This document shows positions 21,325-50,022 of a stretch of DNA of 64,000 nucleotides, in pieces; within the stretch, counting starts at the first letter, position 1, and the number at the start of each line of letters is the position of its first letter. The translations under genes were made by a program, and so were the position numbers. Source of the DNA: Escherichia phage vB_EcoM_ESCO8; the sequence record OM386653.1. One strand, 5' to 3'. A model generated the notes under the pieces. It was not told the DNA's origin, did no database searches, and worked only from the letters and a program-made list of their open reading frames with translations.

Positions 21325-21379
21325 AAAAACATGCTACCCTAATCTTATATACCGAGCGATAGCGAGGTAGAGAATATTC
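21325..21379 (+). repeat. conserved ~55 nt element, copy A (aaaaacatgctaccctaa...gagcgaNagcgag...attc)
   Basis: Near-identical 18-mer plus similar downstream sequence also at 49968-50022. Confidence 0.4.
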
Positions 21380-21460
21380 CATGTTATACATGGAAAGAGT
21401 ATATGTAATGTTACTAACTCTATAACTAACTATATACTCTTTATACCTTACTTACTACTC

Positions 21461-21724
21461 TTATTGAAGTTCAAAGATATCCCCATCTCCATCATATCCA
21501 TACTCTAACTCTCCTGTATCATATAATACAATAAAGTCTGTATCATCTTCAATAAAAGATTTAGCATAGTCTACTAACTCTTCATTATCTTCATACCCTT
21601 CCAGGTACTCAATACGACCATTGATACATTTAGCTGCAACAACTCCTGGGCCATTGCTTGGAGTCCACTCACTGTATACTCGCATACCTAATTCTTTAAT
21701 CATTGTTTGTCTCCTCATAATCAA
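21461..21724 (-). CDS. hypothetical acidic protein (87 aa)
   Basis: ORF track. Confidence 0.45.
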   Translation of the reverse strand: MIMRRQTMIKELGMRVYSEWTPSNGPGVVAAKCINGRIEYLEGYEDNEELVDYAKSFIEDDTDFIVLYDTGELEYGYDGDGDIFELQ

Positions 21725-21920
21725 TGTAGTTGTAACACTTATTCTTTAAGAAATCTTCTGCTTGTTTATTGTGTTTTAGAATGATGCACTTCTCTTTGTT
21801 CTGTTCTACATCATTATGTAGATTGTACAAGTTAGATGCACCATACAGAATACCAATTAACAAAAGCAAAGAGATTGCTGTTGATAACAAAAATTGTTGC
21901 AACTTGTTTACAGACTTCAT
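21696..21920 (-). CDS. small membrane-anchored protein, paralog family B
   Basis: N-terminal TM helix; EKCIILKHNKQAEDFLKNKCYNYIDYEE matches 25784..26032 (EQCIVFKHQRNAEKFLALDCNRYVSYQMYE). Confidence 0.45.
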   Translation of the reverse strand: MKSVNKLQQFLLSTAISLLLLIGILYGASNLYNLHNDVEQNKEKCIILKHNKQAEDFLKNKCYNYIDYEETNND

Positions 21921-22143
21921 AAACCCTCCTTATCGTTAGTACACATTGATACTAACAAGAAGTTAAGATCGTGTCAACATCTTTGTGTTAATTTTATCCA
22001 CTGTTCACATTCTTCTTTTGTGTCGTACTCTACAGGCTTTCCTGTATCATTTCCACAACCATCTCCGAACGTAGCCCACCAGGAGAATAGAAAACAAGTT
22101 TCTCTTACTCTCCACTTATTGGCATAAGGTACAACATAATAAC

Positions 22144-22395
22144 TCATAAGATTGTGATCCTTAGTTCATTTTCTAAGGTGTGTCTCACACATTCTTTGAA
22201 ATTGTTATCAACATAAACCACACGTACCCCATGAGGTGTTTCTTTACATTCAAACACATTATATACAGTGTCAGATAAGACATGTTGTACGTTTACTTGT
22301 CCAACACCATCTTTAACCACAACCATTACTTTCAGTAAACTTGTATGGTTTTTAACTTCATCTTCTACGTATGCTACAACATCTTTGATATTCAT
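22144..22395 (-). CDS. hypothetical protein (83 aa)
   Basis: ORF track. Confidence 0.45.
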   Translation of the reverse strand: MNIKDVVAYVEDEVKNHTSLLKVMVVVKDGVGQVNVQHVLSDTVYNVFECKETPHGVRVVYVDNNFKECVRHTLENELRITIL

Positions 22396-22691
22396 CGTTT
22401 CTCCTGTTTAAGTACGATATAAGATTGACGAGATTTCCATCGTCCCATCTTAACAAGGCAAATAACGCCTCTCTTTAACAGATATTTCATATCTTCGTCA
22501 TAAGCTGTTTGCAATTGCCACTTACTGTTAACAGGAAGAGAACCATGTACCCTTAAGTGAGCTAACAGATACTTTCTTCGCTCCTTCCCATAAGGCAGAT
22601 ATTGCCATTCTTTCTTTGATACAGGTTCGTGTACTTTACGATGCCAGTAAGTAAGGTGTCTTCTTTTATGTAAACCCCTATTCCTTACCAT
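22392..22691 (-). CDS. hypothetical basic protein (99 aa)
   Basis: ORF track; Arg/Lys/His rich. Confidence 0.45.
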   Translation of the reverse strand: MVRNRGLHKRRHLTYWHRKVHEPVSKKEWQYLPYGKERRKYLLAHLRVHGSLPVNSKWQLQTAYDEDMKYLLKRGVICLVKMGRWKSRQSYIVLKQEKR

Positions 22692-22930
22692 TATACCTCT
22701 ACCTCCGTTACCCCAGGATCTCTAGTCCAGGTATAGTAGAGCATACCATCTTCTTTCAGTGCAATGCGATCACTTTCGTCTCGAAGATATAGGTCACATA
22801 CTACGCGCAGTTGCGGATCTGATCCGAGTAGTTCTGAAACAATAAGGTCATCACCGCTCATACGAGCAACAATCACTGCATATTGACCAGTATCTGCATC
22901 AAAAATTGGTTGTCCGATGTTTAATTGCAT
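22691..22930 (-). CDS. hypothetical protein (79 aa)
   Basis: ORF track. Confidence 0.4.
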   Translation of the reverse strand: MQLNIGQPIFDADTGQYAVIVARMSGDDLIVSELLGSDPQLRVVCDLYLRDESDRIALKEDGMLYYTWTRDPGVTEVEV

Positions 22931-23115
22931 TGTGTTGTCTCCTTATTCAGTACATTGTTTTGTGCTGCGCGCCAGCACTCATAAAAACCTTGGGTTAATG
23001 GCATAGTGTAATTTCCAGAAGGATCTCTTTCGAGATCCCCATCTGCATAACAACCACTACCTAAAAACCATTTTTCAAAATCGGATAAATCATCCCAATC
23101 TACACTATTTTCCAT
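22921..23115 (-). CDS. hypothetical protein (64 aa)
   Basis: ORF track. Confidence 0.4.
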   Translation of the reverse strand: MENSVDWDDLSDFEKWFLGSGCYADGDLERDPSGNYTMPLTQGFYECWRAAQNNVLNKETTQCN

Positions 23116-23116
23116 A

Positions 23117-23608
23117 TTATACTGTCTTATACCCTACAATAGCAACCTGATTCGTAGGCTTCCAACGACCAATAATCTCACCAGAAATCTCTGTGCTACC
23201 ATTTATGTATTGGTAATGGGTATCATCATGATTAACCCACGCCATAACGTCAAGAGTAGGGGTTTTGACGTGTACCAGTAGTGTAGCCCATTCTGGGGCT
23301 TCTTTAATATCTACAGAATCTTGCCAATCTTCTTCGATGTGCCAAGTAGGTTCACCATCAACATCTGTAACGAAGAAACGAGCTTTCATACGTTTAAAGA
23401 ACATTGGTGTATACCCATGATCGCACTCTGGGGTAAAATCATCCATCGTCTCGTCATAGGTGAAATATTGTCCATCTTTGTAATGAAAAGATGCGCAAAA
23501 TAGTTCATTACGAGCAGGAACATGCCATACAGCTACAAAACTACGACCATGTGGATAATGTTTAACCTCTTGCATAGTTTCCTCCTTATTTTTATTCAAA
23601 AGAATCAA
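23117..23608 (-). CDS. hypothetical protein (163 aa)
   Basis: ORF track; aggaggaaact RBS near internal Met also possible. Confidence 0.5.
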   Translation of the reverse strand: MILLNKNKEETMQEVKHYPHGRSFVAVWHVPARNELFCASFHYKDGQYFTYDETMDDFTPECDHGYTPMFFKRMKARFFVTDVDGEPTWHIEEDWQDSVDIKEAPEWATLLVHVKTPTLDVMAWVNHDDTHYQYINGSTEISGEIIGRWKPTNQVAIVGYKTV

Positions 23609-24035
23609 TTCGATTTTGTTCTATGTCAATTGCAGCATCTAAGATAAGTTTTAATGCTTCGAATTGCAAGTCTTCCTCTAAAGAGAAGACATATAAAACA
23701 ACGGATTCCAAGTAAGACAGCACTCCAAGACTAAGCGTTGCAATTTCTACTCCTGCATCGGAGAAGCCTGTTTGCAAAATTTCTTTGAAGAAACGCTGTT
23801 TATCAACAATAGCAGATAAAATAAGCGTTTTACGCTCGTCTGCTGATCGCACTGTGCAGTATATGTTGCTAAAAGAATCTAGCCACATTTTGATCATACC
23901 TTGTCGGTACATAAGGATTTCAATATCAGCTAACATATTATTTCTCCTCTGGAGAAAGGTTTGCATTAACTTGATAGTAAAAATCAAAATCTTTGTGTTG
24001 ATCGCACCATTCTTGAGCGTCTTTAAATGACGCAA
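23592..24035 (-). CDS. hypothetical protein (147 aa)
   Basis: ORF track. Confidence 0.45.
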   Translation of the reverse strand: MRHLKTLKNGAINTKILIFTIKLMQTFLQRRNNMLADIEILMYRQGMIKMWLDSFSNIYCTVRSADERKTLILSAIVDKQRFFKEILQTGFSDAGVEIATLSLGVLSYLESVVLYVFSLEEDLQFEALKLILDAAIDIEQNRIDSFE

Positions 24036-24126
24036 ATTGCATAGTGAATGTTGCCATCCACGTGTTCATACTTTTATTGAACTTGTCGATAAAAAATGTT
24101 TGCATTATTCCTCCCATTTTATCCAA
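23938..24126 (-). CDS. hypothetical protein (62 aa)
   Basis: ORF track. Confidence 0.35.
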   Translation of the reverse strand: MDKMGGIMQTFFIDKFNKSMNTWMATFTMQFASFKDAQEWCDQHKDFDFYYQVNANLSPEEK

Positions 24127-24338
24127 AGGCAGTATTCTGGAACATAAACCTCCTTCCCTTTGTTATTTACAAAGGTGTACTCCACAAATTCTGCTTTATA
24201 TGTTTTGTTATATTCCTGTGCTGCTGGCACAGGACATTTTGTAATGCGCGTTTCAGTCCAACGGCGGTGTATAACCGCCTTGTTCTTTGGATCAAACGGA
24301 TGTATAAAGTGTGTTTTACTCATGCGCCATTTCCACAA
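24105..24338 (-). CDS. hypothetical protein (77 aa)
   Basis: ORF track. Confidence 0.4.
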   Translation of the reverse strand: MWKWRMSKTHFIHPFDPKNKAVIHRRWTETRITKCPVPAAQEYNKTYKAEFVEYTFVNNKGKEVYVPEYCLWIKWEE

Positions 24339-24720
24339 GATTTTTAATCATAGTTTCTCGACAGAGATTCCACATGTCCGAAGCAACCATAGAGGCATAT
24401 TCATCGGGGTTGGATTCTGGTAAAATCTCTTTAACTGCTTCTGGTGTCGGGTTGCACATAGCAGGTAGTGCTTTAAGTGCATCTTCAATAGAGAGCTTCT
24501 TACCTTCACTGTAAATAACTTCGTAAGCATAGTCATTTACATCTTCTGGAATATCTTGATCCAGGTAACGCACAGTAGAGTTATGCATTTTGTTCATAGC
24601 TTCACTAACACCAGCGCCACAAAGCTGTGCAACTTCTTTAGAGATACAGTCACAAATAACAACTTCATAAGGTTGTCCACCATAATACTGTGCATTATAT
24701 TTGATTTTAACAGACCACAT
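24316..24720 (-). CDS. hypothetical protein (134 aa)
   Basis: ORF track. Confidence 0.5.
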   Translation of the reverse strand: MWSVKIKYNAQYYGGQPYEVVICDCISKEVAQLCGAGVSEAMNKMHNSTVRYLDQDIPEDVNDYAYEVIYSEGKKLSIEDALKALPAMCNPTPEAVKEILPESNPDEYASMVASDMWNLCRETMIKNLVEMAHE

Positions 24721-24786
24721 CTTACTCTCCTTATTTAACGTGTTTTAGCAATTCAATGCGATGCCCTTCAAACATAATCTCTTTCA

Positions 24787-25371
24787 TTACACATCCTCCA
24801 TTTGGAACATCTTCTTGTGGTTAGAATAGATCTGTTTGAAAATCTTGTCAAGGCGTTCATATGATTCTTTATGCTCTTGTTTCCATCCGTGATTTCGGAT
24901 TTTATCTGCTAGGTCATACGCCTCGCATAAAACTTTGGCAAAGTTGGTATTATCTATAGCACAAGCCTCAAAACCTTGAACTAAACCCTCTACATCATAC
25001 CACGTATAGTCAGAGTCACTAGGAGGCTTTCCTGCATCGGCTAAACGTTGCCTCACCCATTCGATACGTTTTTCATTCAAATGGCACTTACCTTCTCTAC
25101 ACTCTTGTTCTAATTCTTCTTTAGATTCATTGAATGGGTGAAGGACAGGTAGCTCTGCTTTTTGCAATTGCTCCAGATATTCTCCTACAATACGCATAGC
25201 TTCACTGTGTGTACACTTTCTACCTGTGTGCCAGTAACGGAAGATACTTTCTGTTAAACAGATGTTTTTACTAAACATCGCATTGTCTTTAACATTCACT
25301 CTATTAGCCCAGTCTAAATAATATACATAAAACTGCAATAATTCATAACTGCTTGGTATAATTTTACTCAT
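24787..25371 (-). CDS. paralog family A member 1 (194 aa)
   Basis: Shares LLQFY..W, LHPFN, RIEWVRQRL motifs with 25995..26363, 28287..28661, 28802..29218. Confidence 0.55.
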   Translation of the reverse strand: MSKIIPSSYELLQFYVYYLDWANRVNVKDNAMFSKNICLTESIFRYWHTGRKCTHSEAMRIVGEYLEQLQKAELPVLHPFNESKEELEQECREGKCHLNEKRIEWVRQRLADAGKPPSDSDYTWYDVEGLVQGFEACAIDNTNFAKVLCEAYDLADKIRNHGWKQEHKESYERLDKIFKQIYSNHKKMFQMEDV

Positions 25372-25549
25372 AGCCTCTCCTTAATTGTGAAAAATGTTAT
25401 CAATCAATATGACTAGTAATACAAGGATAGAAGGGAGTAGGAACAGAAATCTTAACATTATGTGATGCGTGTGAGAAGCGGCTTTAGCGCCAGCCGCCAG
25501 TAAGCCTACTAATCCTACAATAAAGAGCAGTTGTTCAGGGACACCCATA

Positions 25550-25774
25550 TTATGGAACACTTGGATACTCCGTAAGTTCGGCTAACAATTGGATATGTGG
25601 ACACGTGAATTGTTGTCCTGGATAGCGTGAGCTAATATCATCCAGCAAAGCAATCACAGCATTGTGCAATGCTTCGTAATCTTCATAATACACCATCTCT
25701 CCATTAGGATCTTCAACAATATCACAGTGACAAGCGTGAGCAGTACACGCATCCCATTCCAGACGTTTTACCAT
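25550..25774 (-). CDS. hypothetical Cys/His-rich protein (74 aa)
   Basis: ORF track; CTAHACHC motif. Confidence 0.4.
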   Translation of the reverse strand: MVKRLEWDACTAHACHCDIVEDPNGEMVYYEDYEALHNAVIALLDDISSRYPGQQFTCPHIQLLAELTEYPSVP

Positions 25775-25783
25775 AAACCCTCC

Positions 25784-26032
25784 TTACTCATACATTTGAT
25801 AAGATACATAACGATTGCAATCAAGTGCGAGAAACTTTTCAGCATTTCTTTGATGCTTGAACACAATACACTGTTCTTTTTTAGCTGCACTTTCACGAGC
25901 TTCTCTTGCCATATACTCACCTAAACGAACGATACCAGAGAATAACACGTATGCAAGAATAAGACAAACAGTGATTGCACAGAAAGTTTTAAACTTAACC
26001 ATTGTATTCCTCCATATCACGAATACGATCAA
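25784..26032 (-). CDS. small membrane-anchored protein, paralog family B
   Basis: See 21696..21920. Confidence 0.45.
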   Translation of the reverse strand: MIVFVIWRNTMVKFKTFCAITVCLILAYVLFSGIVRLGEYMAREARESAAKKEQCIVFKHQRNAEKFLALDCNRYVSYQMYE

Positions 26033-26363
26033 TCACCCATTGTACACGTTCTTTATTAAGGTGTGCAATGCCTAGCTCTGTTTCCGTAAAGTAGTGCGAG
26101 AAATCCGTATTAAACGGATGTAAATGGTTCAAACCCGCTTTCTTAAATTGTTCCTTCATTTCCTCTCGTACAGAGGATTGGAGCTTTGATACATTCTCAA
26201 CATCTTTTATCCAAGCAATATTGTATAAGAAGTCTACAAGACACGTGCAAAGACCATAATGCTTTTTGCTAAAGTTTGTATCTTCTTGTTCTAACCACCA
26301 TTCATAAAATTGTAGCAAATAGGGGCTGCTTTTCATGTTACACACTTTATTATTTTCTTGCAT
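25995..26363 (-). CDS. paralog family A member 2 (122 aa)
   Basis: LLQFYEWWLEQ, GLCTCLVDFL, LHPFN, RVQWVIDRI motifs. Confidence 0.55.
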   Translation of the reverse strand: MQENNKVCNMKSSPYLLQFYEWWLEQEDTNFSKKHYGLCTCLVDFLYNIAWIKDVENVSKLQSSVREEMKEQFKKAGLNHLHPFNTDFSHYFTETELGIAHLNKERVQWVIDRIRDMEEYNG

Positions 26364-26372
26364 GGTTTCTCC

Positions 26373-26881: not shown

Positions 26882-26884
26882 ATA

Positions 26885-29218: not shown

Positions 29219-29520
29219 CTGTTACAAGAACAGCAACATAGGAACATCATTAATGAAGGATTTAGTATAGGATTTCCCTATCAATTATTCTATATATACC
29301 TATTATTTTTAACACACCCCTTTGTACATAATATAGACAAATAAATATCTATGCCACAAAAATTTTCCGGTATACCCGATTTATTTCGACACACCCCCTT
29401 TTCATAAACGTAAAGTCAATAATATCAATAACTTGCCGCAAAATACTGCTCGCTTGCGAGAGGTGCTTAACGCGATTTTCAGCGCCCCCCGATTTCTGCC
29501 GACCGTCCCCCTCAAATATC

Positions 29521-29543
29521 AATGAGAATTATTATCATTTGCA
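29521..29543. promoter_or_regulatory. Fur-box-like palindromic site 1 (aatgagaattattatcatttgc)
   Basis: 14 of 19 match to GATAATGATAATCATTATC by eye; AATGA...TCATT inverted repeat. Confidence 0.35.
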
Positions 29544-29718
29544 TTATCATTCAATGACTTATAAGACTTTTGATTATTTTCTGAGCAAGAAAGGCACTAC
29601 TCACAACAAAACAGATAAATTCTAAGTAAATCAATGGCTTGGCATTTCTAAACATCTATATACACCTTGCCAAATGAAATGATCTGGCGTGAAATAGTGC
29701 CACCCGTGGAAGATAGCT

Positions 29719-29737
29719 GATAATGATTCTCATTTGC
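29719..29737. promoter_or_regulatory. Fur-box-like site 2 (gataatgattctcatttgc)
   Basis: Exact GATAATGAT half-site; 15 of 19 to Fur consensus; near-identical copy at 42212-42230. Confidence 0.4.
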
Positions 29738-30568
29738 ATACTTTCTGTACTATAAAACCGACTAAAAATCAAGATAATTCTATTTTATTGCGCTTTTAAG
29801 AAAGTAGGCTCAACAAATGGTAAGTTATATTGCAACAAATAGGGATAGTTATGCCCGACAAATAACAACAATAGTATGAAAAATCATCTATTCGGATGTA
29901 AATAATTTTGCGCAATAGCACTGTGTTCCCATAGCGCCCCCTGGAGGGTGGCGCATTATGATCATCAATGTCATTATTCACCATGTTTATTATTGCATAG
30001 CTTATATTATAGCCAATGTTCTAAACATTAGCTAATAATAACGCACCGCAACAATGTAAGGGAATACAATATACCATGTATATTGTTGCGCTTGCAATTG
30101 TTGCAAGCTACATAAGCACAGATAATAACTATCGGTGATGGTTATTATGTGGGGTGTGTAGTTGCGTTATTATTAGCCGCCTATGTGTCCGGCATAGGCT
30201 GCTAATGATACGCTTGCGAATTATATTTCTTGTTATAGTTATTGTATGGAATGATTACTGTATGAAATGATTATTTAGGTAATAGATAGGAAGGTAAAGA
30301 TTAGATCATAAATAGATAGGATATTAATTATTTAGTAATGTTACTAACAATTTAATAGTTACTTTGTGCAACAATTCGATAGATTATAGTTATAGTTTTA
30401 AAGGTTAGATAGATTATATTTAGCTTAGTAATGATTTATATTGGTTATTGTTGTTTAATATAAGGTTATCAATGAGATAGTAACAGTAAGTTATAAATAA
30501 AGGTGAGATAATTAGTTTTAATTTAGTTAGATAACTTATTATTTTATAGGTTAGATGGTCATAAGTTA

Positions 30569-30589
30569 AGAATGATTATCATTATTGCA
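30569..30589. promoter_or_regulatory. Fur-box-like site 3 (aagAATGATtATCATTATtgc)
   Basis: Perfect 13-bp palindrome AATGATtATCATT matching the Fur-box core. Confidence 0.4.
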
Positions 30590-30626
30590 TTATGCAGTTT
30601 ATTGCATAAATAATCAGCTATAAATA

Positions 30627-30645
30627 AGAATGATTATCATTTAAG
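30627..30645. promoter_or_regulatory. Fur-box-like site 4 (aagAATGATtATCATTtaa)
   Basis: Same perfect palindrome 45 bp from site 3. Confidence 0.4.
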
Positions 30646-30855
30646 AGGAAAGACAAGAAAAAGGCTGTTTTTTCCCGATAGTTACATTGAGAAATTAAAA
30701 ATAAGCGGTCTAAAACACGCTGTAAGCGCCTTATGATCTTCATGGTATGGTTGTTCATCTGCTCCTTGATTAGCTCGATACCGCGATCTATTCACTTTTT
30801 TCGGTGAACGTTTTTGATAGGTAAAAGCTATCATATTTATTTAGGTAAAAAGAAA

Positions 30856-30872
30856 GGGCGCTTTGTGCGCCC
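30856..30872 (-). terminator. terminator hairpin (gggcgcTTTGTgcgccc) at 3' end of minus-strand array
   Basis: GC hairpin followed by T-rich run on minus strand, just downstream of CDS 30889..31272. Confidence 0.5.
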
Positions 30873-30888
30873 TGGTATGAAATGTTAT

Positions 30889-31906: not shown

Positions 31907-32334
31907 TTTCTTTTTCCTGTTTTCGTTTTGGGTATGTTCTACCCTCTAAAAACAATATTAAACTGTTGTGATTTATCGGTCAATAGATGAGATTGTAAAG
32001 ATTTGATAGTTTATTCCTTTGATGTTTTGTTGTTTGATAGTTATTAGCTATCAATATATAGCGGGATCTTCCGGTGATTATCTTCCCCTGTCCCCAGGTG
32101 CCGCCCGTTCCATAATAATAATCAAAAGCAGGGTAAAAGGCAAGATAAAAAGCAAATTATTTCCTATGTGCTTTAAACGCTCTAGATAGCTTTATAACGG
32201 CTTTTTCATCCTGGTAAGGTGATTAATCATCACTACCTTGTTTAAGCGGTTATAATCGGTTTTAGGCTGTTTTACGCCACCTTTACGCCTATTCTTTACG
32301 TGTTGTTTCCATCGTGAAAAAAGAATACAAAAAA

Positions 32335-32351
32335 GGGCGCTTAGTGCGCCC
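32335..32351. terminator. bidirectional terminator hairpin (gggcgcTTAGTgcgccc)
   Basis: Flanked by A-run and T-run; downstream of CDS 32369..32758. Confidence 0.5.
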
Positions 32352-32368
32352 CTTTCTTTTACCGTGTA

Positions 32369-33837: not shown

Positions 33838-33858
33838 GCTGATTTCTCTTTTAGTTGT

Positions 33859-33916
33859 GAGCGGCACTATTGCCGCCCTACGAAATACATTCTACCCGAT
33901 TTATAATTGTTGTCAA
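33859..33916 (-). promoter_or_regulatory. PeSL-like cassette (hairpin GCGGCActatTGCCGC)
   Basis: TTGACA 33911-33916 (minus), hairpin 33861-33876. Confidence 0.55.
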
Positions 33917-33917
33917 A

Positions 33918-34187
33918 CTATTTTTTCAAGCTCGACCAGTCAAAACACGGGGCGATCTCGTTAAAACTTGTACCCTGTAAAGCACATAATTTTTTAGCAA
34001 TAGCCGCCGTAACCTGGCGTTGTACGCGAGGATCTGCTACTGATTGGAGAAAGTAGGCGGCTTTATATGTGATCATGCTTTCGCCTGTTTCCTTGTTAAC
34101 GTGGTGCACGGTTTTAGCCTTATCATCTTTTACCAGGGTGTAACCGGATTCGATGGCCTTGATTGCAACGTCCAAAGATATTTTCAT
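33918..34187 (-). CDS. hypothetical protein (89 aa)
   Basis: ORF track; aagagg RBS. Confidence 0.45.
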   Translation of the reverse strand: MKISLDVAIKAIESGYTLVKDDKAKTVHHVNKETGESMITYKAAYFLQSVADPRVQRQVTAAIAKKLCALQGTSFNEIAPCFDWSSLKK

Positions 34188-36540: not shown

Positions 36541-36566
36541 AAAAGGGCGCTTATTGCGCCCTTTTT
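36541..36566. terminator. bidirectional terminator (aaaagggcgcTTATtgcgcccttttt)
   Basis: Perfect hairpin flanked by A4 and T5. Confidence 0.55.
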
Positions 36567-37100: not shown

Positions 37101-37159
37101 GGCGGGAAACCATTTCCCGCCGTTGTTGTTACTTTACTTATAAATCATGCTACTGTCAA
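37101..37159 (-). promoter_or_regulatory. PeSL-like cassette (hairpin GGCGGGAAAccaTTTCCCGCC)
   Basis: TTGACA 37154-37159 (minus), hairpin 37101-37121. Confidence 0.55.
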
Positions 37160-37794: not shown

Positions 37795-37815
37795 TTTGAT
37801 AATCTCTCTTACTAT

Positions 37816-37874
37816 GAGCGGCACTATTGCCGCCCTATGCATTACATTTTACTGATTTTAGTTATCTTGTCAAG
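37816..37874 (-). promoter_or_regulatory. PeSL-like cassette (hairpin GCGGCActatTGCCGC)
   Basis: TTGACA 37869-37874 (minus), hairpin 37818-37833. Confidence 0.55.
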
Positions 37875-37881
37875 ATTATTT

Positions 37882-38109
37882 TTAGTTTAATCCATCCAGG
37901 CACAACAAGCGATCAACATTCAGATCGGTTAGGCTAATCGTTGGCACCTGGTAGGATTCGATGTACTCAACGCTCGACCATTGCCCGAAGTTAGCGACCG
38001 CCCAGCTATTCAAGGAAGAGTGAAGATCATCCCCTTTCTTCTCGGTGATAACTGCTACTACCTGGGAGCTTCCAACCGTACCGGATACGCGAACAATAAC
38101 GATAGCCAT
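37882..38109 (-). CDS. hypothetical protein (75 aa)
   Basis: ORF track. Confidence 0.4.
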   Translation of the reverse strand: MAIVIVRVSGTVGSSQVVAVITEKKGDDLHSSLNSWAVANFGQWSSVEYIESYQVPTISLTDLNVDRLLCLDGLN

Positions 38110-38131
38110 AATGATAACCTTTCTTTGATTT

Positions 38132-38191
38132 GGCGGGAAACCATTTCCCGCCCTATGTGATATATCTTACACTAATTTAAAACGTTGTCAA
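38132..38191 (-). promoter_or_regulatory. PeSL-like cassette (hairpin GGCGGGAAAccaTTTCCCGCC)
   Basis: TTGACA 38186-38191 (minus), 16 nt, TAAGAT, hairpin 38132-38152. Confidence 0.55.
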
Positions 38192-38286
38192 ATTATTTTC
38201 TATTTCTTCCGTAATAGCCTAATTTATGATCTAAGCTAAAACGTTTTGTGAGATAGGTCGAACGATGTTTCATTTTTATATCTCCT

Positions 38287-41158: not shown

Positions 41159-41180
41159 GATTATTTCTCTCTTCTGTTAT

Positions 41181-41238
41181 GAGCGGCACTATTGCCGCCC
41201 TATGTGATACATCTTATCAGATTAAAAAACGTTGTCAA
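41181..41238 (-). promoter_or_regulatory. PeSL-like cassette (hairpin GCGGCActatTGCCGC)
   Basis: TTGACA 41233-41238 (minus), 16 nt, TAAGAT, hairpin 41183-41198, then RBS and ATG of 40886..41158. Confidence 0.55.
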
Positions 41239-41609
41239 GAATATTTTTAAAAGATAATAACCGCTACTACAATCCAAAATGGAACGGCTAGAATGATAGC
41301 GTTAATCGTTCCAACCGTCAAGCTGTTTTCTTTCTTGATCATCGTTATCAACCTTTTATAAGTAATGTTATTGTGACGGTGGATTGTGGAGATCCTCACC
41401 TTTGCCCGTCCTGCATTGCGCCCTCCTTTTGTTTATTGTCGTTGTGCCTCGCCCCCCTCGACAAGATGAATAATACGCTACCAGGTGAGGAACGTCAACC
41501 CCTTTTTTAATCTTTTTTCATTTCTTTTTTGCTTGCTATCTATAAAGGAAAGGGGCTATTATCTTTCTACCGCGCCAACCAGGGCGCACATCAAAGAAAG
41601 GGCGATACC

Positions 41610-41876: not shown

Positions 41877-41878
41877 TC

Positions 41879-42138: not shown

Positions 42139-42252
42139 AAATGAGAAAATTCTCATTTGCTAATGATTCTCATTCTCTTACTGAGAATGATTATCACTTA
42201 CATACTTAAATGATAATGATTCTCATTTACAAATGAAAATGATTATCATACG
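42139..42252. promoter_or_regulatory. cluster of five Fur-box-like palindromic sites
   Basis: aatgagaaAAttctcatt (8+8 palindrome), AATGAttcTCATT, gAATGATtATCAc, GATAATGATtctCATTtac, AATGATtATCATa within 114 bp. Confidence 0.4.
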
Positions 42253-42269
42253 CACACCCATAAAAACAC

Positions 42270-42478
42270 GAAATTGAACTTTTCATTTTTGATTTTTCTA
42301 CGGAAAAAGGCAAAAAACTTTAAATAAACTGGGGAATTTTTAAAAAATTGAAGTTTTCATTTTCAAAATCTGGATAGAAATACGTACAAAAACTTTAAAT
42401 AATTTTGACCAAACTTGAACTTTTCATTTTCAAAATTTGTACCCAAAAATCTGTAAAAACTTTAAATAATTTTGTCCT
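42270..42478. repeat. three tandem ~66-74 bp direct repeats (ttgaaSttttcattttcaaaat ... aaaactttaaataa)
   Basis: Units begin near 42274, 42348, 42414; each has a TTGAA..TTCAA dyad and a TTTAAATA box. Confidence 0.55.
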
Positions 42479-43240: not shown

Positions 43241-44413
43241 TTACATCTCCTTACTGTATACTAATTTGCCACCATATTGTGTAATAATTTTTTGAAGATT
43301 TTCCAAATCAGAAACACTTACTGTTTCTGTATAACCATCTTTCAACTCTCTTGCCGTTAAAATACCAGTTTTTAATTTTTTCTTTATAGCTCTTTCAGCA
43401 GCCCTACATTGTTTCACTGTGCTAAAATCATATAAACAAATACGCCCCATAAAAAACAGATTACGGCTCTTTTGACCGTTTAATCGTCTATCGCTATCTT
43501 TAGATATACCAAACTTAAGAGCAACTATAATATCATTATCTTTAACAATATTAATATATAATTGCTGTTGATTATGACCAGCACACTGTGGACAACCTTG
43601 ACCGAGGCTTAATAAATTACGAGCACTCCCTATCTGCTCACCATGCACAAGACAAAGATATTTAAACTTACCTATAGAAGAGGGTTTGGTAATCCAATCT
43701 ACCCAGACATACCCTTTCCCTTCTACTTCCTTTTTTACCCTATAGGTGATCTGGTCTTCTGTATACTGATAGTTCCCACAACGACACGGAATATACCCTT
43801 GTTTAAGGTTATGTCCTGCAGAGTAAAATTTACCATCACAAACACCTGCTTGAACATATTCATCATGGGAGCAAACAGGACACTCAACCATCCATACTGC
43901 ATCACGCTTGTTACGTTTCCCTGTATTGGTGAAGATAGTGCCTTCCTTAAATTCCCCTGTAGAAAAGAAATCTGCAATATGTTGATCGTCGGACATTGTT
44001 TGTCTCTCCCTCTTACATTGTGGACAACCGCTACCACGTTTAAAATTGTTAATACTTGTAGTATCCCATTTATTACCACAATGACACAACAAATCAAGTT
44101 TTGTTTTATTCCCTTTCCATTCTCCCACGTACCCTAACACCTGATACCCCCTCTTCTGTGCTATCTCTTCCAAGATCGGCAATTCTGTTTCCCATGTTAA
44201 CGGCTTCTTACCAGAACAGATAGGACAACCACGTCCCTTCTTAAAATCATTAATGTTCGTGGTGTTCCACTCTCCATGTTTAGGACAAGATAGCTTAAGT
44301 TTAGTCTTGTTCCCTTTCCATTCACCAACATAACCCAGGATTTGAATATTGCGATTTTTAGCAAGGGGTGTTAATTCTTCTTTATATTGTTCCCATGATT
44401 TTGGTGCTGTCAT
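43241..44413 (-). CDS. zinc-ribbon-repeat protein with C-terminal GIY-YIG/T5orf172-like domain (putative nuclease)
   Basis: 390 aa; two tandem ~45 aa repeats (LGYVGEWKGNKTKL.L.C...G.W.TT.IN.FK.G.GCP.C), further GCPQC motif, C-terminal LYINIV...ALKFGISKDSDRRL resembling the T5orf172 KxGxT...RR core. Confidence 0.4.
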   Translation of the reverse strand: MTAPKSWEQYKEELTPLAKNRNIQILGYVGEWKGNKTKLKLSCPKHGEWNTTNINDFKKGRGCPICSGKKPLTWETELPILEEIAQKRGYQVLGYVGEWKGNKTKLDLLCHCGNKWDTTSINNFKRGSGCPQCKRERQTMSDDQHIADFFSTGEFKEGTIFTNTGKRNKRDAVWMVECPVCSHDEYVQAGVCDGKFYSAGHNLKQGYIPCRCGNYQYTEDQITYRVKKEVEGKGYVWVDWITKPSSIGKFKYLCLVHGEQIGSARNLLSLGQGCPQCAGHNQQQLYINIVKDNDIIVALKFGISKDSDRRLNGQKSRNLFFMGRICLYDFSTVKQCRAAERAIKKKLKTGILTARELKDGYTETVSVSDLENLQKIITQYGGKLVYSKEM

Positions 44414-44450
44414 CTATTACTCCTCTTATTAAATCTGGCATCAATACAAG

Positions 44451-44470
44451 AAAACCCGCCGGAGCGGGTT
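44451..44470. terminator. bidirectional terminator (acccgcCGGAgcgggt + T-run)
   Basis: Same hairpin as 17750-17770. Confidence 0.5.
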
Positions 44471-44487
44471 TTTATTTGCTGGCTTAC

Positions 44488-45615: not shown

Positions 45616-45626
45616 TTTAACCCCTT

Positions 45627-46064
45627 TTATTTTTGTTGAGATGAACGAATTAAATCAGCAGCAAATTCAATCAGATACACTTTTGGTGCAATAATGATTT
45701 TTAGCCAATCAAAATTCGAAAAGAAAATAACAAATCCTAAAAAGAAAAAGAAAGCACAGACAACAAGGCCAACAATAGGTAAAGCAGATACTTCACCATA
45801 GCGATCTCGTGACCACAGGCATTCTTTATCTTTAATTGCTTTTACGAGGTTCCGCACAGCAATAAAAGTAATAAACATAAAGCAAATACTAAAAAGTTGC
45901 CATAAACCTGCGGATACTGCTTTCCACACTAATAGTTGATGGATTACTTCTGGAATTTGTTGTTTTCCAAACTCTACAACATCACTCATTGTTTGAATAG
46001 TGACGTTAACCATGTTCAGAAGTACATCCGTTGCTTTATCTGCGATTGCGTTTGTTTTACTCAT
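45627..46064 (-). CDS. membrane protein (145 aa, multiple TM helices)
   Basis: ORF track; hydrophobic segments. Confidence 0.45.
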   Translation of the reverse strand: MSKTNAIADKATDVLLNMVNVTIQTMSDVVEFGKQQIPEVIHQLLVWKAVSAGLWQLFSICFMFITFIAVRNLVKAIKDKECLWSRDRYGEVSALPIVGLVVCAFFFFLGFVIFFSNFDWLKIIIAPKVYLIEFAADLIRSSQQK

Positions 46065-46078
46065 TCTTTATTCCTCAC

Positions 46079-46252
46079 TTACCTTTTAAGGAAACCAATC
46101 ATAATGAAGAACCACATCCAGGCAGGAGAGATAATAAAGCCAAAGAAACCGCAAATAACCGCTTTCTTAATCTCTTCCAGACAACCCACCAGGAAAAGAA
46201 CGAGTGAGACTACAATCCAGATAGCCATAAATACTGTAACAAAGAAACTCAT
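46079..46252 (-). CDS. small membrane protein (57 aa)
   Basis: Not in track; hydrophobic. Confidence 0.3.
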   Translation of the reverse strand: MSFFVTVFMAIWIVVSLVLFLVGCLEEIKKAVICGFFGFIISPAWMWFFIMIGFLKR

Positions 46253-46272
46253 ACCTTTCTCCCGTCTGTATT

Positions 46273-46524
46273 TTAAAATTCAACCACCACTTTATCGAGG
46301 TGCTCTGCTTCAACTTGATCTAATGTTAACACCTCAACTAAACCCTTGTCAATACCTAATTTAATAACATCAACATATTGTCCAAACAGATCCTGGATAG
46401 ATATCTTGTGTTCGACAACAACAACCACTTCATTCCCTTTTGTGAATTCTCTCCATACACGTCCACATTTGAAAATAAAGTCTGCTTCATCTGCTGTTAT
46501 CATTTTAGGTTTGATACTTAACAT
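46273..46524 (-). CDS. hypothetical protein (83 aa)
   Basis: ORF track. Confidence 0.45.
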   Translation of the reverse strand: MLSIKPKMITADEADFIFKCGRVWREFTKGNEVVVVVEHKISIQDLFGQYVDVIKLGIDKGLVEVLTLDQVEAEHLDKVVVEF

Positions 46525-46862
46525 TATAAAACTCCGTACTCTGGTTCAATATTATGCTTACGACAAATGGCATCCCAACGCTCATTACCAAAACTTCTTC
46601 CATGTAGTGCATCGTATGCGAAATGTTCTGCCAACCACATTACTACACCATCTGGTTCAGTGTCAAGCGGAATTCGAAACTCTCGATCATAACGCATACG
46701 GAGAACAAACTCATTACCGTCTTCCAGCAGGTGCATATGACTTTTAGCTCGTGATGCCAAATCGAAGAAAGGAGGTTCATCGTTCCAAACGTGACGCTCA
46801 ACTTCAACACCATGATCAACTACCAAAGTGGCAATTACTTCTCTCATTTCTTTACTAAACAT
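46524..46862 (-). CDS. hypothetical protein (112 aa)
   Basis: ORF track. Confidence 0.5.
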   Translation of the reverse strand: MFSKEMREVIATLVVDHGVEVERHVWNDEPPFFDLASRAKSHMHLLEDGNEFVLRMRYDREFRIPLDTEPDGVVMWLAEHFAYDALHGRSFGNERWDAICRKHNIEPEYGVL

Positions 46863-46960
46863 ATTAAAGCCCTCCTAATTTAATAGTCCACTCAACACCT
46901 GTTAGATAACTTCTTTACACAAGTATACTAAGAACATATAAGTGATTTTACCAGATATGT

Positions 46961-47314
46961 TTAGCTCCACAAATTATGGAAATACTTAGCAAACAAAATA
47001 CGACCTTCTAAACGCTCTTGCCGTTGTTTTTCATTAACTTCTTCAGGTGGAGTTGAATCCTTAAAAGAGGACTCCATTTTTTCAAGAATTTCTAACCAGT
47101 GTTCTGCTGCTCGTTCTTCCATATAAGGTAGATAGTCACCTTTAGCGTGTGGGTACATCCGACGAAGTAACCCGCTAGGAATTTTAACATTGTTTGTGGC
47201 TATCACTTTTGCACGATATGCAGAAAGTGCGTTGTAGATCAGTTTACTTAGTGTCACATCCAGATCAAGAAGATCACTCTCTTCAAATTGAATTTCATCG
47301 TGTACAATTTTCAT
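46961..47314 (-). CDS. hypothetical protein (117 aa)
   Basis: ORF track. Confidence 0.5.
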   Translation of the reverse strand: MKIVHDEIQFEESDLLDLDVTLSKLIYNALSAYRAKVIATNNVKIPSGLLRRMYPHAKGDYLPYMEERAAEHWLEILEKMESSFKDSTPPEEVNEKQRQERLEGRILFAKYFHNLWS

Positions 47315-47325
47315 ATCACTCTCCT

Positions 47326-47616
47326 TTATAGTAAAACACGTTTTGCACTGCTTGGTGCATTGTCGAACATGTTTATCACTTTGTCAAGTTTGTGTATTAA
47401 CTCGTTCGTAATGTTCCACTCTTTGTATGATCTCCATTGTTTCTTATTCTCACCTACCTGGTGTAAAACTTTGATTGGTGCATTCAAACGTACATTGCGT
47501 TCTTTGTCCTCTTCAAAAGAGGCTAACCATTTTTCGTTATGCCCATGAACAGCAATAATAATGCCAAAACCATCAAAAGTTTCTGTAATATTCTTAGTTG
47601 CTAGTGTGATGTTCAT
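47326..47616 (-). CDS. hypothetical protein (96 aa)
   Basis: ORF track. Confidence 0.45.
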   Translation of the reverse strand: MNITLATKNITETFDGFGIIIAVHGHNEKWLASFEEDKERNVRLNAPIKVLHQVGENKKQWRSYKEWNITNELIHKLDKVINMFDNAPSSAKRVLL

Positions 47617-47665
47617 ATCTAACCTCTTTTGTTACGATACCCACAGAGTACCAGAAACTAATTTC

Positions 47666-47693
47666 AAATCAAGTATTGACATACATTTTTATT
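47666..47693 (+). promoter_or_regulatory. sigma70-like promoter (TTGACA-N16-TAAGAT) in divergent intergenic region
   Basis: Same -10 hexamer as several PeSL cassettes; drives the plus-strand block starting at 47735. Confidence 0.45.
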
Positions 47694-47734
47694 TTGTTAA
47701 GATTAGCGCATACCAAATGAAAGGAGAAAAACAA

Positions 47735-47881
47735 ATGCAAAACATCGAACTAACTTCTATCGAAGCTAAAGAAGCAATGAAGGAAGATAGACGTGTTGAA
47801 CATAACCGTTTTTGCGGTGGTGAGTGGTTTGAGATGGAATTCAGATCGGAAGTTTGGCAAGGGAGTGATGGGGGGGTGTAA
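47735..47881 (+). CDS. small protein (48 aa)
   Basis: Track ORF 47561..47881; internal ATG after gaaaggagaaaaacaa RBS. Confidence 0.35.
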   Translation: MQNIELTSIEAKEAMKEDRRVEHNRFCGGEWFEMEFRSEVWQGSDGGV

Positions 47882-47899
47882 TCAAAAAGGAAAGAAGAA

Positions 47900-48046
47900 A
47901 TGATCTACAAAAATAAGTTCACTGGCTGTCTGCGTAAATTTATTGACAAAAAAGGGTATGTTTCTGTTGACAATGGTGTTACGTGGGTGCAAAATGGCAC
48001 TTCAGAACAACTGATCAAGGCTTTACCTTACTATGAGGAGGTTTAA
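47900..48046 (+). CDS. small protein (48 aa)
   Basis: Not in track; aaaaaggaaagaagaa RBS; stop abuts next ATG. Confidence 0.35.
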   Translation: MIYKNKFTGCLRKFIDKKGYVSVDNGVTWVQNGTSEQLIKALPYYEEV

Positions 48047-48370
48047 ATGTCAAACAGTCTGTTTAGCGTGTCAATTGCACCACGTGTCAATATCCGTTGT
48101 CAGTTTGTTACTTTACCTGGTGTAACGCATATCACATTAGAATACGATCCTCGCTCACGAGACAACCCAATCACAGGGAAAATTGATTGTGCTTATGGTG
48201 ATTTTGTTATGGATCACCAAACCATCTTATGCTGTGTGCAACGCTTACAGGCAGGATCTTTATACATCTTTAAGAAAACGGTGTTCCAAGAGATTGCTCA
48301 AGCAGTTGAAAGTGGTATGGAGACTCTTAACGCTATGATTGAAGCAGCCAACAAGAAGGAGGTTTTATGA
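48047..48370 (+). CDS. hypothetical protein (107 aa)
   Basis: ORF track. Confidence 0.45.
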   Translation: MSNSLFSVSIAPRVNIRCQFVTLPGVTHITLEYDPRSRDNPITGKIDCAYGDFVMDHQTILCCVQRLQAGSLYIFKKTVFQEIAQAVESGMETLNAMIEAANKKEVL

Positions 48371-48624
48371 CACTTTATCACGTAACTACAGAAGGCGACT
48401 GTGAAGGCCGCACTACAAAAGATTTGGGGTATGTTGAAGCAGATTCACCTGAACATGCAATTAAGTATCTGCACTCTATTGGTAAGTATGCTTATTATGA
48501 ATATTATATTTATGAGGTTGAGGAAAATCCTATACAAGTAGCAACACCTATGGTAGAGTTGGAACCTCTTAAAGCAAAAGTTAAAACTGGCAGTACATCT
48601 GGATTTAAGGGGGTAGTACAATGA
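48367..48624 (+). CDS. hypothetical protein (85 aa)
   Basis: ORF track. Confidence 0.45.
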   Translation: MTLYHVTTEGDCEGRTTKDLGYVEADSPEHAIKYLHSIGKYAYYEYYIYEVEENPIQVATPMVELEPLKAKVKTGSTSGFKGVVQ

Positions 48625-48890
48625 AAATTCGTGATAATATTGCAGACTACATTGTAACTTGTGAAGATGGTACAGATGTTTTGCTCCCGCAACCAATTGT
48701 TTGGGAGGATGGTGAAATGTACCGTGTAGCTACGGAACATTGTAAAGGTATTGACATTAAAGCTCTTTGTGCTATGCTTGTCGAAGATCAAGAATCTGAT
48801 CTCTCAGTTGTAACATACCAAGATGTGTATGAAATCTGTGAAACTTTACTACAAATGCATGAAGATGGACAAGAGGTATTTCCAAAATGA
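48621..48890 (+). CDS. hypothetical protein (89 aa)
   Basis: ORF track. Confidence 0.45.
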   Translation: MKIRDNIADYIVTCEDGTDVLLPQPIVWEDGEMYRVATEHCKGIDIKALCAMLVEDQESDLSVVTYQDVYEICETLLQMHEDGQEVFPK

Positions 48891-49087
48891 CAGAATGGGT
48901 AAAAGTAGAAGATCCATACGATATCCCACTAGGTGAGTATGTGGTGGTAATGGAAGATGGTGAAAAAGGGTATTGTGAAGTGCATAAAAGTATGTCTGGT
49001 AAGATTATTGTGGTGAACCATCATTTTCACTTTGATTACCCTCCTATTGTGGCATATATGCCTTTACCTAAATATGAAGGGGATTAA
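48887..49087 (+). CDS. hypothetical protein (66 aa)
   Basis: ORF track. Confidence 0.4.
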   Translation: MTEWVKVEDPYDIPLGEYVVVMEDGEKGYCEVHKSMSGKIIVVNHHFHFDYPPIVAYMPLPKYEGD

Positions 49088-49234
49088 ATGTTATTCTTTA
49101 GACTTAATATTGCTTTTTGTTTGTTTGCAAACATTGCATTCTGGGTATTGGGTAGTGTAAAATTAGGCTACTTCTTTATTGTACTACAAGCTATTTGTTT
49201 AGCTGGTCAAATAATCACTAAGGGGCGAGTATGA
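49088..49234 (+). CDS. small membrane peptide (48 aa)
   Basis: Not in track; ATGA overlap with next gene. Confidence 0.35.
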   Translation: MLFFRLNIAFCLFANIAFWVLGSVKLGYFFIVLQAICLAGQIITKGRV

Positions 49235-49659
49235 CACAACAAATCCAAGATAAATTTAATGAACTCTATCCAGCAAGCGAAAGCGGCACTCATAACGTGC
49301 GTAAATCGCTCTATAACGTCTTTAAAGCAGGATGGGAGGCTTGCCTTCAGGCTCAAGAAAAACCAGCGTTAGGGACGCGTAACGGCTTTTATATCCCGAT
49401 TGTTGAAAGCGAGGAAGGATGGGGTAGCAAATATGATGGCTATATGGTAGGATTCACCATAGAAGATCTTGAAGAACGCCGTAAAGTCTTTGAGGCAGCT
49501 AATACAGAAAAGTATGGCTACTATTATGAACGACCTATTCGTTACACTCCTGTTGTGCTTAGTCCTAAAGCTGTTGAAACAATGTCTGCAACAGAAAAAG
49601 AAAGGACTCGCCATTGTGTATGGTTTGATGATATTGACGATTTTCGATTTGGAGAATAA
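49231..49659 (+). CDS. hypothetical protein (142 aa)
   Basis: ORF track; aaggggcgag RBS. Confidence 0.5.
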   Translation: MTQQIQDKFNELYPASESGTHNVRKSLYNVFKAGWEACLQAQEKPALGTRNGFYIPIVESEEGWGSKYDGYMVGFTIEDLEERRKVFEAANTEKYGYYYERPIRYTPVVLSPKAVETMSATEKERTRHCVWFDDIDDFRFGE

Positions 49660-49662
49660 TTT

Positions 49663-49935
49663 ATGAAAAATAAACACCCTTACTATCAACTATTGCATGT
49701 ACTGCGCCGATTGCGCAATAAGCAGATTGAAGATTTCCGTCACTTCAAGCGTGATCGTGTGAATCGTCAATGGATGGATCATCGTTTCTTCTCTTTAACT
49801 GTACGTAAGTTCCGTGAAGAGATTAAGAAGACAGACCAGGTAATTGCAGGTGCTAAACGTGCAATCTCTATGTCAAAAATCACAGGTGTAAATCATATGT
49901 ACGACTTCAAAACAGACTCTGTTGTACCTATGTAA
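49663..49935 (+). CDS. hypothetical basic protein (90 aa)
   Basis: ORF track. Confidence 0.45.
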   Translation: MKNKHPYYQLLHVLRRLRNKQIEDFRHFKRDRVNRQWMDHRFFSLTVRKFREEIKKTDQVIAGAKRAISMSKITGVNHMYDFKTDSVVPM

Positions 49936-49967
49936 AAGTATTTTGTAAAGTTTTGTGGAGAGTATTG

Positions 49968-50022
49968 ACTTTTTCAGAAAAACATGCTACCCTAAACCTG
50001 AAAGGTGACGAGCGAAGCGAGT
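49968..50022 (+). repeat. conserved ~55 nt element, copy B
   Basis: aaaaacatgctaccctaa and downstream gagcgaagcgag...attctc shared with 21325-21379; followed by 7-bp dyad 50043-50071 and RBS of 50100 CDS. Confidence 0.4.

Follow-up and report, generated by a model that had tools for sequence, protein, structure and literature searches.

Why should a large lytic coliphage carry the same short non-coding sequence at two distant sites, once ahead of a gene and once facing genes that run the other way? The question is raised by a 64,000-nucleotide (nt) stretch of the genome of Escherichia phage vB_EcoM_ESCO8 (OM386653.1), referred to below as the window, in which a first-pass annotation had noticed that the 18-mer AAAAACATGCTACCCTAA occurs twice and had proposed for it a binding site, a recombination hotspot or an antisense RNA module. 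We followed this element through the window, through the genomes of related phages and through bacterial contigs. In our reading, the repeat is probably one of three cassettes per genome, each joining a promoter to a hairpin in the 5' leader, which together make up one co-regulated set; the hairpin would act in the RNA, and one of the copies would give rise to a non-coding or antisense RNA.

The repeated element: predicted promoter and GA hairpin

The 18-mer is exact on the plus strand at both sites, 21325-21342 (copy A) and 49978-49995 (copy B), so that the reported identity is borne out; the second site had been placed 10 nt off, at 49968-49985, and the end then given for the whole element (50022) fits the true position. 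No further match to AAAAACATGCTACCCTAA at three or fewer mismatches was found within the window (0.12 expected), and none of 100 shuffles reached two matches. As claimed, both 18-mers are followed by gagcgaNagcgag and by a ..tag..attc tail, but the N of gagcgaNagcgag is found only in copy A, and the gap, said to be 15-25 nt, is 11 nt in copy A (GAGCGATAGCGAG, 21354-21366) and 14 nt in copy B (GAGCGAAGCGAG, 50010-50021). Gapped similarity extends over about 70 nt (21309-21380 against 49961-50031), more than the 55 nt or so first proposed; the description of the repeat as non-coding and conserved holds, beyond chance. An apparent third copy in the window (37128-37158, repeat family D7, 74% identity) was rejected as a chance match: read in reverse complement it is simply the spacer of an early promoter on the minus strand, no hairpin accompanies it, and it reaches 11.5 bits with the covariance model described below.

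The window is 98-100% identical to the phi92-like myoviruses of E. coli (Justusliebigvirus, Stephanstirmvirinae), such as outra (MN850645) and phi92 (FR775895). Its genes run on the plus strand up to 17.3 kb; a block of small early genes on the minus strand then spans 17.5 kb to about 46 kb, and from about 46.3 kb (replication and nucleotide metabolism) the genes are on the plus strand again. A covariance model built from 12 distinct copies (R1) was searched against the window and the complete genomes of outra and of the phAPEC8-like phage B15 (MG065650), 360 kb in total. On the window it recovers copy A (21308-21376, 65.3 bits) and copy B (49961-50031, 79.6 bits), and in each complete genome it gives exactly three matches at 65-80 bits, the next best reaching 14 bits. 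The count of two is thus right for the window and becomes three genome-wide, copy C lying outside the window; nor does the motif look like a common k-mer, in view of the mismatch search of the window and the covariance-model search of the two complete genomes. In outra, copy C reads TTGACA-17-TGcTACCCTAA, followed by the hairpin CGCC-GAGC-GCA-GCGA-GGGG, and lies in a divergent gap that heads a block made of PRPP synthetase, NAPRTase, a tRNA cluster, terminase and structural genes. Tracing copy C through its downstream gene was given up, PRPP synthetase being present in 1,566 phage records and useless for synteny.

The same layout recurs in the phAPEC8-like genome of B15: copy C lies in the divergent gap before the structural block, copy B runs with the replication genes close to where their block starts, and copy A is antisense in the early block, close to its 3' end. 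This triad of antisense, sense and divergent copies was also found in two more metagenomic lineages, and the module is present in Klebsiella and Citrobacter Tr1 relatives. A blastn search of the module against 5,426 E. coli genomes gave no match, and host mimicry was rejected. The genome of outra has 73 matches to TTGAC[AT]-N16-18-TAnnnT, about 15 of which are early promoters, each with a GC-rich hairpin about 5 nt past the start; only the three copies join TACCCT to a GA hairpin. We found no description of such a promoter/GA-hairpin element in the literature. As a side observation, the host labels of four GenBank records titled 'Campylobacter phage' look unreliable: C3 (MG065656), A150 (MG065639) and A110a (MG065689) show the 100% match to the copy-B or copy-C query that is also seen with the Justusliebigvirus records from E. 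coli, and B15 (MG065650), a record marked UNVERIFIED, matches as phAPEC8 does (79.5% to the copy-B query).

What the 18-mer contains is the spacer and the extended -10 element (TGcTACCCT) of a sigma70-type promoter of the form TTGACW-N17/18-TGnTACCCT. In both window copies TGc precedes TACCCT and a -35 hexamer lies exactly 17 nt 5' of TACCCT: on the plus strand, copy A (21312-21340) has TTTACT at 21312-21317, TG at 21332-21333 and TACCCT at 21335-21340, and copy B (49965-49993) has TTGACT at 49965-49970, TG at 49985-49986 and TACCCT at 49988-49993. With the start taken as 7 nt past the -10 element, transcription would begin at about 21347 and about 50000, respectively. Over the 12 distinct copies, the TT.AC of the -35 hexamer, ATG.TACCCTA and the 17/18-nt spacing are invariant, and the flanks differ. 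The hexamer is TTGACA in copy C; the spacer measures 18 nt in the C-type copies of B15 and Tr1 and 17 nt in all others (A-type, B-type and phi92-like C-type). TG(C/G/A)TACCCT is present in 18 of 18 distinct copies, and the -10 element has T-12, A-11 and T-7. Each repeat looks like a host-type promoter (sigma70, extended -10), as predicted from these motifs. Copies B and C, and the copies in chromosomal islands described below, are co-oriented with the genes downstream; copy A faces minus-strand genes. We also observed short palindromes centred on the predicted start sites (ACCTGAAAGGT, AAACATATGTTT, AAACCCGAAGTTT and CCCCGAAGGG), often with a C-GAA-G core (49996-50006 in the window; about 633-644 in L031; also L039 and L037).

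The part of the element that follows the promoter reads best as a hairpin, recovered by the folding and covariance check that had been proposed with the first-pass annotation. Its plan is a variable 4-nt stem, GA, GC, a loop of 3-4 nt, GC, GA and the complementary 4 nt, which corresponds to a covarying 4-bp stem (2-4 bp), a closing C-G pair, tandem G.A/A.G, G-C and C-G pairs and a G-initial loop. Copy A carries it on the plus strand at 21350-21369 (UACC-GAGC-GAUA-GCGA-GGUA), as seen in the minimum-free-energy fold and in the covariation counts, and copy B at 50006-50024 (UGAC-GAGC-GAA-GCGA-GUUA), also on the plus strand, from sequence, covariation and fold. The stem begins at about +3 to +7 from the predicted start, 13-17 nt from the -10 element, and the sequence of the linker is free to vary. 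Loops have 3 or 4 nt (GAA, GCA, GAUA, GAAU, GGGA; in the islands also GUAA and GAAA).

In a 12-sequence MAFFT alignment, pairing cells make up 90.3%, against 77.9% in shuffles (1 of 500 reaching the observed value) and 28-44% when the partner columns are slid; in 18 distinct sequences fitted to a covariance model the values are 91.7%, 79.4% (0 of 500) and 26-45%, with double-sided changes in three pairs (C-G/A-U/U-A, A-U/U-A/G.U/C-G and U-A/C-G/U.G). The sequences are related, and these statistics therefore overstate independence; they support the hairpin structure short of proof. G.U pairs occupy 10 of 108 cells in the 18-sequence alignment (8 of 72 in the unfitted alignment of 12). They would read A.C on the opposite strand, on which the tandem G.A would turn into mismatches between pyrimidines. 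Of 11 copies, 10 fold better as the sense strand than as the complement. The G.U pairs and the better sense-strand fold favour the transcribed strand. Strand-specific pairing, together with the variable loop length and the variable distance from the -10 element, argues against a rigid protein site on double-stranded DNA. The regulatory character first suggested for the repeat is thus still the best reading, but probably not in the form of a linear or double-stranded site, gagcgaNagcgag being a covarying hairpin whose loop and spacing vary. AGCGA direct repeats were also considered as a protein site and rejected: the Tr1 variant GAGCGAATGCGAG (loop GAAU) breaks the repeat and keeps the hairpin, and loop length varies.

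Eleven nucleotides of the hairpin are invariant, beyond what its modest stability alone explains, and the core is the same in all three paralogues, in at least four lineages of phages and in the islands, with a lower stem that covaries. Rfam gave no match at gathering thresholds for the window or the islands, and only noise at E <= 10; the hairpin, with its tandem G.A of the sheared type, is a compact candidate RNA recognition motif without an Rfam family. A terminator reading was rejected, as no U-tract follows either the GA hairpin or the second hairpin of the leaders, and no terminator-like sites were found in the 5.5 kb around copy B (46000-51500). A GA-containing stem is used as a terminator in an unrelated IMG/VR match (L066).

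Loci of the copies and counterparts in chromosomal islands

Copy A had been described as intergenic between minus-strand genes, and hence antisense, which is correct: it lies in a 207-nt gap between the homologues of phi92 gp024 (21035-21253) and gp023 (21461-21724), early genes on the minus strand. Beyond the GA hairpin, its plus-strand leader folds into a second hairpin (21377-21395, UUCCAUG-UUAUA-CAUGGAA), to which a hairpin of the islands is homologous, and a third, long-range stem (21396-21440, AGAGUAUAU...AUAUACUCU). This third stem closes a structured leader of about 94 nt, 20 nt short of the stop codon of the minus-strand gene. The leader fold has a z-score of -4.3 against shuffles, and the roughly 140 nt of 21305-21445 hold no variable site among five close genomes, against a background of 2-3 per 100 nt. 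No plausible plus-strand open reading frame was found after copy A. The best reading, a predicted one, is that copy A makes a non-coding or antisense RNA, so that the antisense module envisaged earlier survives for this copy; copy B is sense in its gene block. A sigma70-like promoter on the minus strand (TTGACA-17-TGtTAGTAT, 21949-21977; outra coordinate 121153) is convergent with copy A at a distance of about 630 nt. Between 20500 and 24500 we counted nine terminator-like hairpins (22178-24279) against 1.9 expected; six of the nine are plus-strand hairpins that lie downstream of copy A and run antisense to the minus-strand early genes.

Copy B does lie within the leader of the plus-strand gene at 50100, as had been reported, in a 164-nt gap ahead of the 88-residue homologue of phi92 gp208 (50100-50366), the first gene on its 3' side. 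The 7-bp dyad noted upstream of the ATG is there as well (gttcctg, 50043-50049; caggaac, 50065-50071), and in the fold it forms a second hairpin on the plus strand (50043-50071); a homologous GUUCCUG... hairpin is present in the B-type copies of Klebsiella, Citrobacter Tr1 and an uncultivated virus genome. The minimum-free-energy fold adds a long-range pairing (50025-50098, plus strand) of GUAUUCUC (50025-50032) with GAGAAUAC (50091-50098), which overlaps the Shine-Dalgarno sequence AGGAGA (50089-50094) of the gene starting at 50100; the Klebsiella and Tr1 copies do not keep this pairing in the form seen here. The z-score of this leader is -4.05 against shuffles. Of 55 Justusliebigvirus records, the 25 listed all have copy B identical at 81 of 81 positions, and none of the 55 falls below 99%, the surrounding 1.2 kb being 98-99% identical; the approximately 178 nt around it hold no variable site among the five close genomes, with the same background as for copy A. 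Such constraint on the sequence of copies A and B is suggestive only. The leader of copy C, unlike those of A and B, is no more structured than its shuffles; a nearly pure A+T stretch lies 3' of copy C, directly upstream of a second promoter. Ten proteins flanking the copies gave no match in Pfam and no informative one in PHROGs.

Beyond the phage subfamily, the covariance model finds the full module (43-60 bits) in four islands or contigs: a 22.8-kb IMG/VR contig (L058; module to leader at 4708-5700), the chromosome of Citrobacter sp. OP27 (L127; about 4151 down to 3580, minus strand), a 505-kb contig of a Scandinavium metagenome-assembled genome (L122; about 5394 down to 4840, minus strand) and a 243-kb contig of an uncultured bacterium (L142; about 7399 down to 5840, minus strand). 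The module follows an integrase-sized gene in three of the four (L058, L122 and L127), a tyrosine integrase according to PHROGs in L058 and L127. In each of the four, a non-coding leader of 0.55-1.5 kb, conserved among L058, L122 and L127, separates the module from the operon towards which it is directed; this operon ends in a protein of about 410 residues, which is primase-like by PHROGs in L058 and L127 and would be so in L122 and L142 from size and position. The leader also holds 46-nt direct repeats and a second, consensus promoter (TTGACA-17-TATAAT). Among the phage paralogues it is closest to copy A: the second hairpin of the islands (CUUUCAUG-UUAGU-CAUGAAAG) matches that of copy A with a compensatory change of C-G to U-A, and AGAG(A)GUAU follows it. 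The genes shared by phages and islands amount to at most two weak methyltransferase matches, in L058 only; no capsid or packaging link between islands and phages was seen, the island leader was not found by blastn in 5,426 complete E. coli genomes, and no copy of the module was found in P4.

A looser pattern scan of genome contigs gave mostly chance matches, 6 of the 120 listed carrying promoter features. With a relaxed pattern in IMG/VR, about 30 contigs of HTVC023P/027P-type pelagiphages (L041, 2024-2161; L042-L080) showed a divergent pair, TATACCCTAT-C7-AAC-GAGCGAAGCGAG-TGGG, 68 nt apart, between small leftward genes and terminase/portal genes; the pair resembles copy C and has no TTGACA -35 element. 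These pairs were set aside as members of the module: a control with a scrambled 7-mer gave 11 loci, and the covariance model gives them no score. The likeness may be due to chance or convergence.

Possible mode of action and rival explanations

How would such a set of cassettes work? Host RNA polymerase would read the sigma70-type extended -10 promoter and start the transcript 2-6 nt upstream of the compact GA hairpin. Copy C would launch the PRPP-synthetase/NAPRTase/tRNA/structural block from its divergent control region, and copy B would fire into the replication and nucleotide-metabolism block, 2.3 kb from the block start. Copy A, having no gene to express, would yield a highly structured non-coding RNA of about 100 nt, and any RNA left unterminated there would run antisense into the early genes and meet the early promoter 630 nt away. 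The invariant core of the hairpin would serve as a shared 5' tag, most likely as the recognition site of a trans-acting factor, and it might protect the 5' end as well. Promoter activity, start sites, timing, the partner of the hairpin and the effect of copy A on the early genes are what we infer from the DNA letters. The module would thereby define a small regulon open to test, with three promoters, one RNA hairpin and an orphan antisense unit, in phages that are common in therapy and in the BASEL collection; we found no published account of expression timing in phi92-like or phAPEC8-like phages.

Several observations weigh against this account. The hexamers match 8 of 12 consensus positions, and a simple sigma70 scan requiring at least 9 of 12 misses copies A and B; the invariant CCC inside the -10 element goes beyond sigma70 recognition. 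A short palindrome spans the predicted start in 8 of 12 copies and could not form in an RNA that starts there. By nearest-neighbour energy the GA hairpin is modestly stable (-1.5 to -7.1 kcal/mol), in some copies the minimum-free-energy fold is a different one, and the relatedness of the sequences inflates the covariation statistics, as said above. No canonical terminator was found after copy A, and in the literature on Stephanstirmvirinae we found no transcriptome or start-site report.

An alternative is a regulon that depends on a phage factor and is shared with satellites, a rather unlikely possibility to which we give only modest weight. An activator, an antiterminator or an RNA-binding protein would here act as an early-to-middle switch; the replication operon of the islands would fire on infection, or copy A would be an RNA decoy directed at the leader of the islands. 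The 11 hairpin nucleotides and the CCC of the -10 element are invariant beyond the needs of sigma70 or of stability, four island variants, with at most two weak methyltransferase matches to the phage (L058 only), have the module at the head of their primase operon, the island leader resembles copy A more than it does the other paralogues, and some 70 other sigma70-like promoters of the genome have neither TACCCT nor the GA hairpin. However, a near-consensus -35 element may be enough for host polymerase by itself; Pfam and PHROGs revealed no candidate factor among the flanking proteins, no capsid or packaging tie connects islands and phages, the islands are absent from the complete E. coli genomes searched, and no intrinsic terminator was found in the 5.5 kb around copy B. 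One might speculate, and tentatively at that, that a phage factor recognises the -10 region, the GA hairpin or both, and switches on B and C while A counteracts early transcription; the islands would have copied an A-type module in order to sense or exploit infection, or copy A would be an RNA mimic aimed at the island leader. If true, a shared cis-regulatory RNA would link a virulent coliphage family to a family of satellite-like islands. The counterpart in the islands offers a concrete starting point for examining how virulent phages and satellite-like elements may interact.

It seems improbable that the copies are plain duplicated promoters, with a generic 5' stem-loop kept by common descent and no specific partner. 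Hairpins at the 5' end are a common style in this genome, at least 10-15 early promoters also carrying a GC-rich one about 5 nt past the start, but common descent fits poorly with a core that stays invariant across paralogues, lineages and islands next to a covarying lower stem and a freely changing linker. Any GC hairpin would shield better than one of such modest stability, and copy A has no gene to express.

Very doubtful, in our view, is the idea that these are origin-type promoters, whose transcripts prime or form R-loops as at T4 ori(uvsY) and ori(34) or at the T7 primary origin, with a GNA/GNNA mini-hairpin on the displaced strand. Copy A would then need no gene, a nearly pure A+T stretch does follow copy C, in the islands the module is directed into a conserved non-coding leader that has 46-nt direct repeats and lies upstream of a primase operon, and GCGAAGC is a classic stable DNA mini-hairpin. 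Yet the A+T stretch may be the UP element of the second promoter, the G.U pairs favour RNA over DNA, and the window has a better origin candidate at 42.1-42.5 kb. GC skew was discarded as an indicator of origins, since it merely follows gene orientation.

We set aside, as having next to no chance, a role in recombination, as a substrate or as a mobile promoter cassette like the PeSLs of T4-type phages whose main role is modular shuffling, or a double-stranded AGCGA-repeat operator: the composite of promoter and stem-loop does resemble PeSLs, and the module has evidently moved between phages and islands, but there are only three copies, at fixed loci conserved between genera and not flanking variable ORFans, which also leaves the proposed recombination hotspot with no specific support, the stem-loop has no U-tract, and the Tr1 variant destroys the direct repeat, with spacing and loop length varying besides.

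The window has further repeats in addition to the module of promoter and GA hairpin. On the minus strand, between 31580 and 41250, at least 10 cassettes of about 76 nt (for example 33854-33929, 37811-37886, 38115-38204 and 41176-41251) each precede a small early gene and run in the order UP-like A-tract, TTGACA, 16-17 nt, TAnnAT, about 11 nt and a GC-rich hairpin, GGGCGGCAAUAGUGCCGCUC or GGCGGGAAAUGGUUUCCCGCC. Units of AAAAGGGCGCTTAGTGCGCCCCTTTT (A-run, GC hairpin, T-run), also in the early region (30852-30876, 32331-32355 and 36541-36565), look like bidirectional intrinsic terminators. Sequences of 17-25 nt, for example TGATAATGATTCTCATT, are similar to the Fur box of E. coli (GATAATGATAATCATTATC) and lie at 29512-29742, 30567-30641, 42157-42258 (four in tandem) and 55176-55194, with four matches at three or fewer mismatches against 0.12 expected, and their main cluster sits in a stretch of about 0.8-1.5 kb with few or no annotated genes. 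Directly after the Fur-box-like cluster, three tandem 67-nt repeats (AAAWTTGAASTTTTCATTTT...AAAAACTTTAAATAA) occupy 42270-42477, an array that could be an origin or a regulatory hub. Finally, a 52-nt direct repeat (75% identical, 201 nt apart) lies at 44083-44134 and 44284-44335, near the divergent control region.

Comparison with known systems

The promoter part shares with the extended -10 (TGn) sigma70 and the sigmaS-type -10 elements of E. coli the TG at -15/-14, T-12, A-11, T-7, the C at -13, which is a feature of sigmaS-type -10 elements, and a TTGACW -35 element at 17-18 nt. Unlike both consensus sequences, it has an invariant CCC at -10 to -8 and AA at -6/-5.

The G-initial loop of 3-4 nt clamped by G-C pairs recalls d(GCGAAGC) and the GNA/GNNA mini-hairpins, as well as the promoters of the N4 virion RNA polymerase; most loops of the module fit GNA or GNNA, the GAAU of Tr1 being an exception. 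In contrast to the N4 hairpin promoters, the hairpin here lies downstream of the promoter, and its G.U pairs point to RNA; to our knowledge, phi92-like phages have no virion RNA polymerase. A hairpin a few nucleotides from the 5' end is also found in the stabiliser of the ompA 5' untranslated region. Stem-loop stabilisers at the 5' terminus need no specific sequence, whereas the phage module has 11 invariant nucleotides and a modest predicted stability.

As a self-contained promoter directed against the flanking genes, on the 3' side of an early operon, copy A is reminiscent of lambda OOP, from which it differs in having no canonical terminator that we could find and in that the same promoter and hairpin also head two sense operons. 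In the lambda nut sites (boxA and boxB) and the HK022 put sites, too, a transcribed promoter-proximal hairpin, with a G-initial GNRA-like loop, heads several operons; in the phage module, unlike in these, the hairpin stands at the very 5' end. We saw no boxA-like sequence at copies A and B, identified no N-like protein among the flanking proteins and found no terminators downstream of copy B.

The nearest relatives in outline may be the PeSLs of T4-type phages, which occur in large numbers on either side of ORFans in hyperplastic regions, work as terminators and bring about shuffling (Arbiol et al. 2010, PMC2839356; Comeau et al. 2014, PMC4122927). Like them, the module is a repeated, intergenic and conserved unit of about 70-100 nt, with a sigma70-like promoter next to a stem-loop, in a large lytic coliphage; unlike them, it has three copies at fixed loci, and its stem-loop is transcribed, small, GA-containing and without a U-tract. 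The early promoter-hairpin cassettes of the window (31.6-41.3 kb) are closer analogues of PeSLs than is the three-copy module. The element would thus represent a previously undescribed variant of the phage promoter/stem-loop cassette, set apart by its fixed three-site layout, its orphan antisense copy and its counterpart in chromosomal islands.

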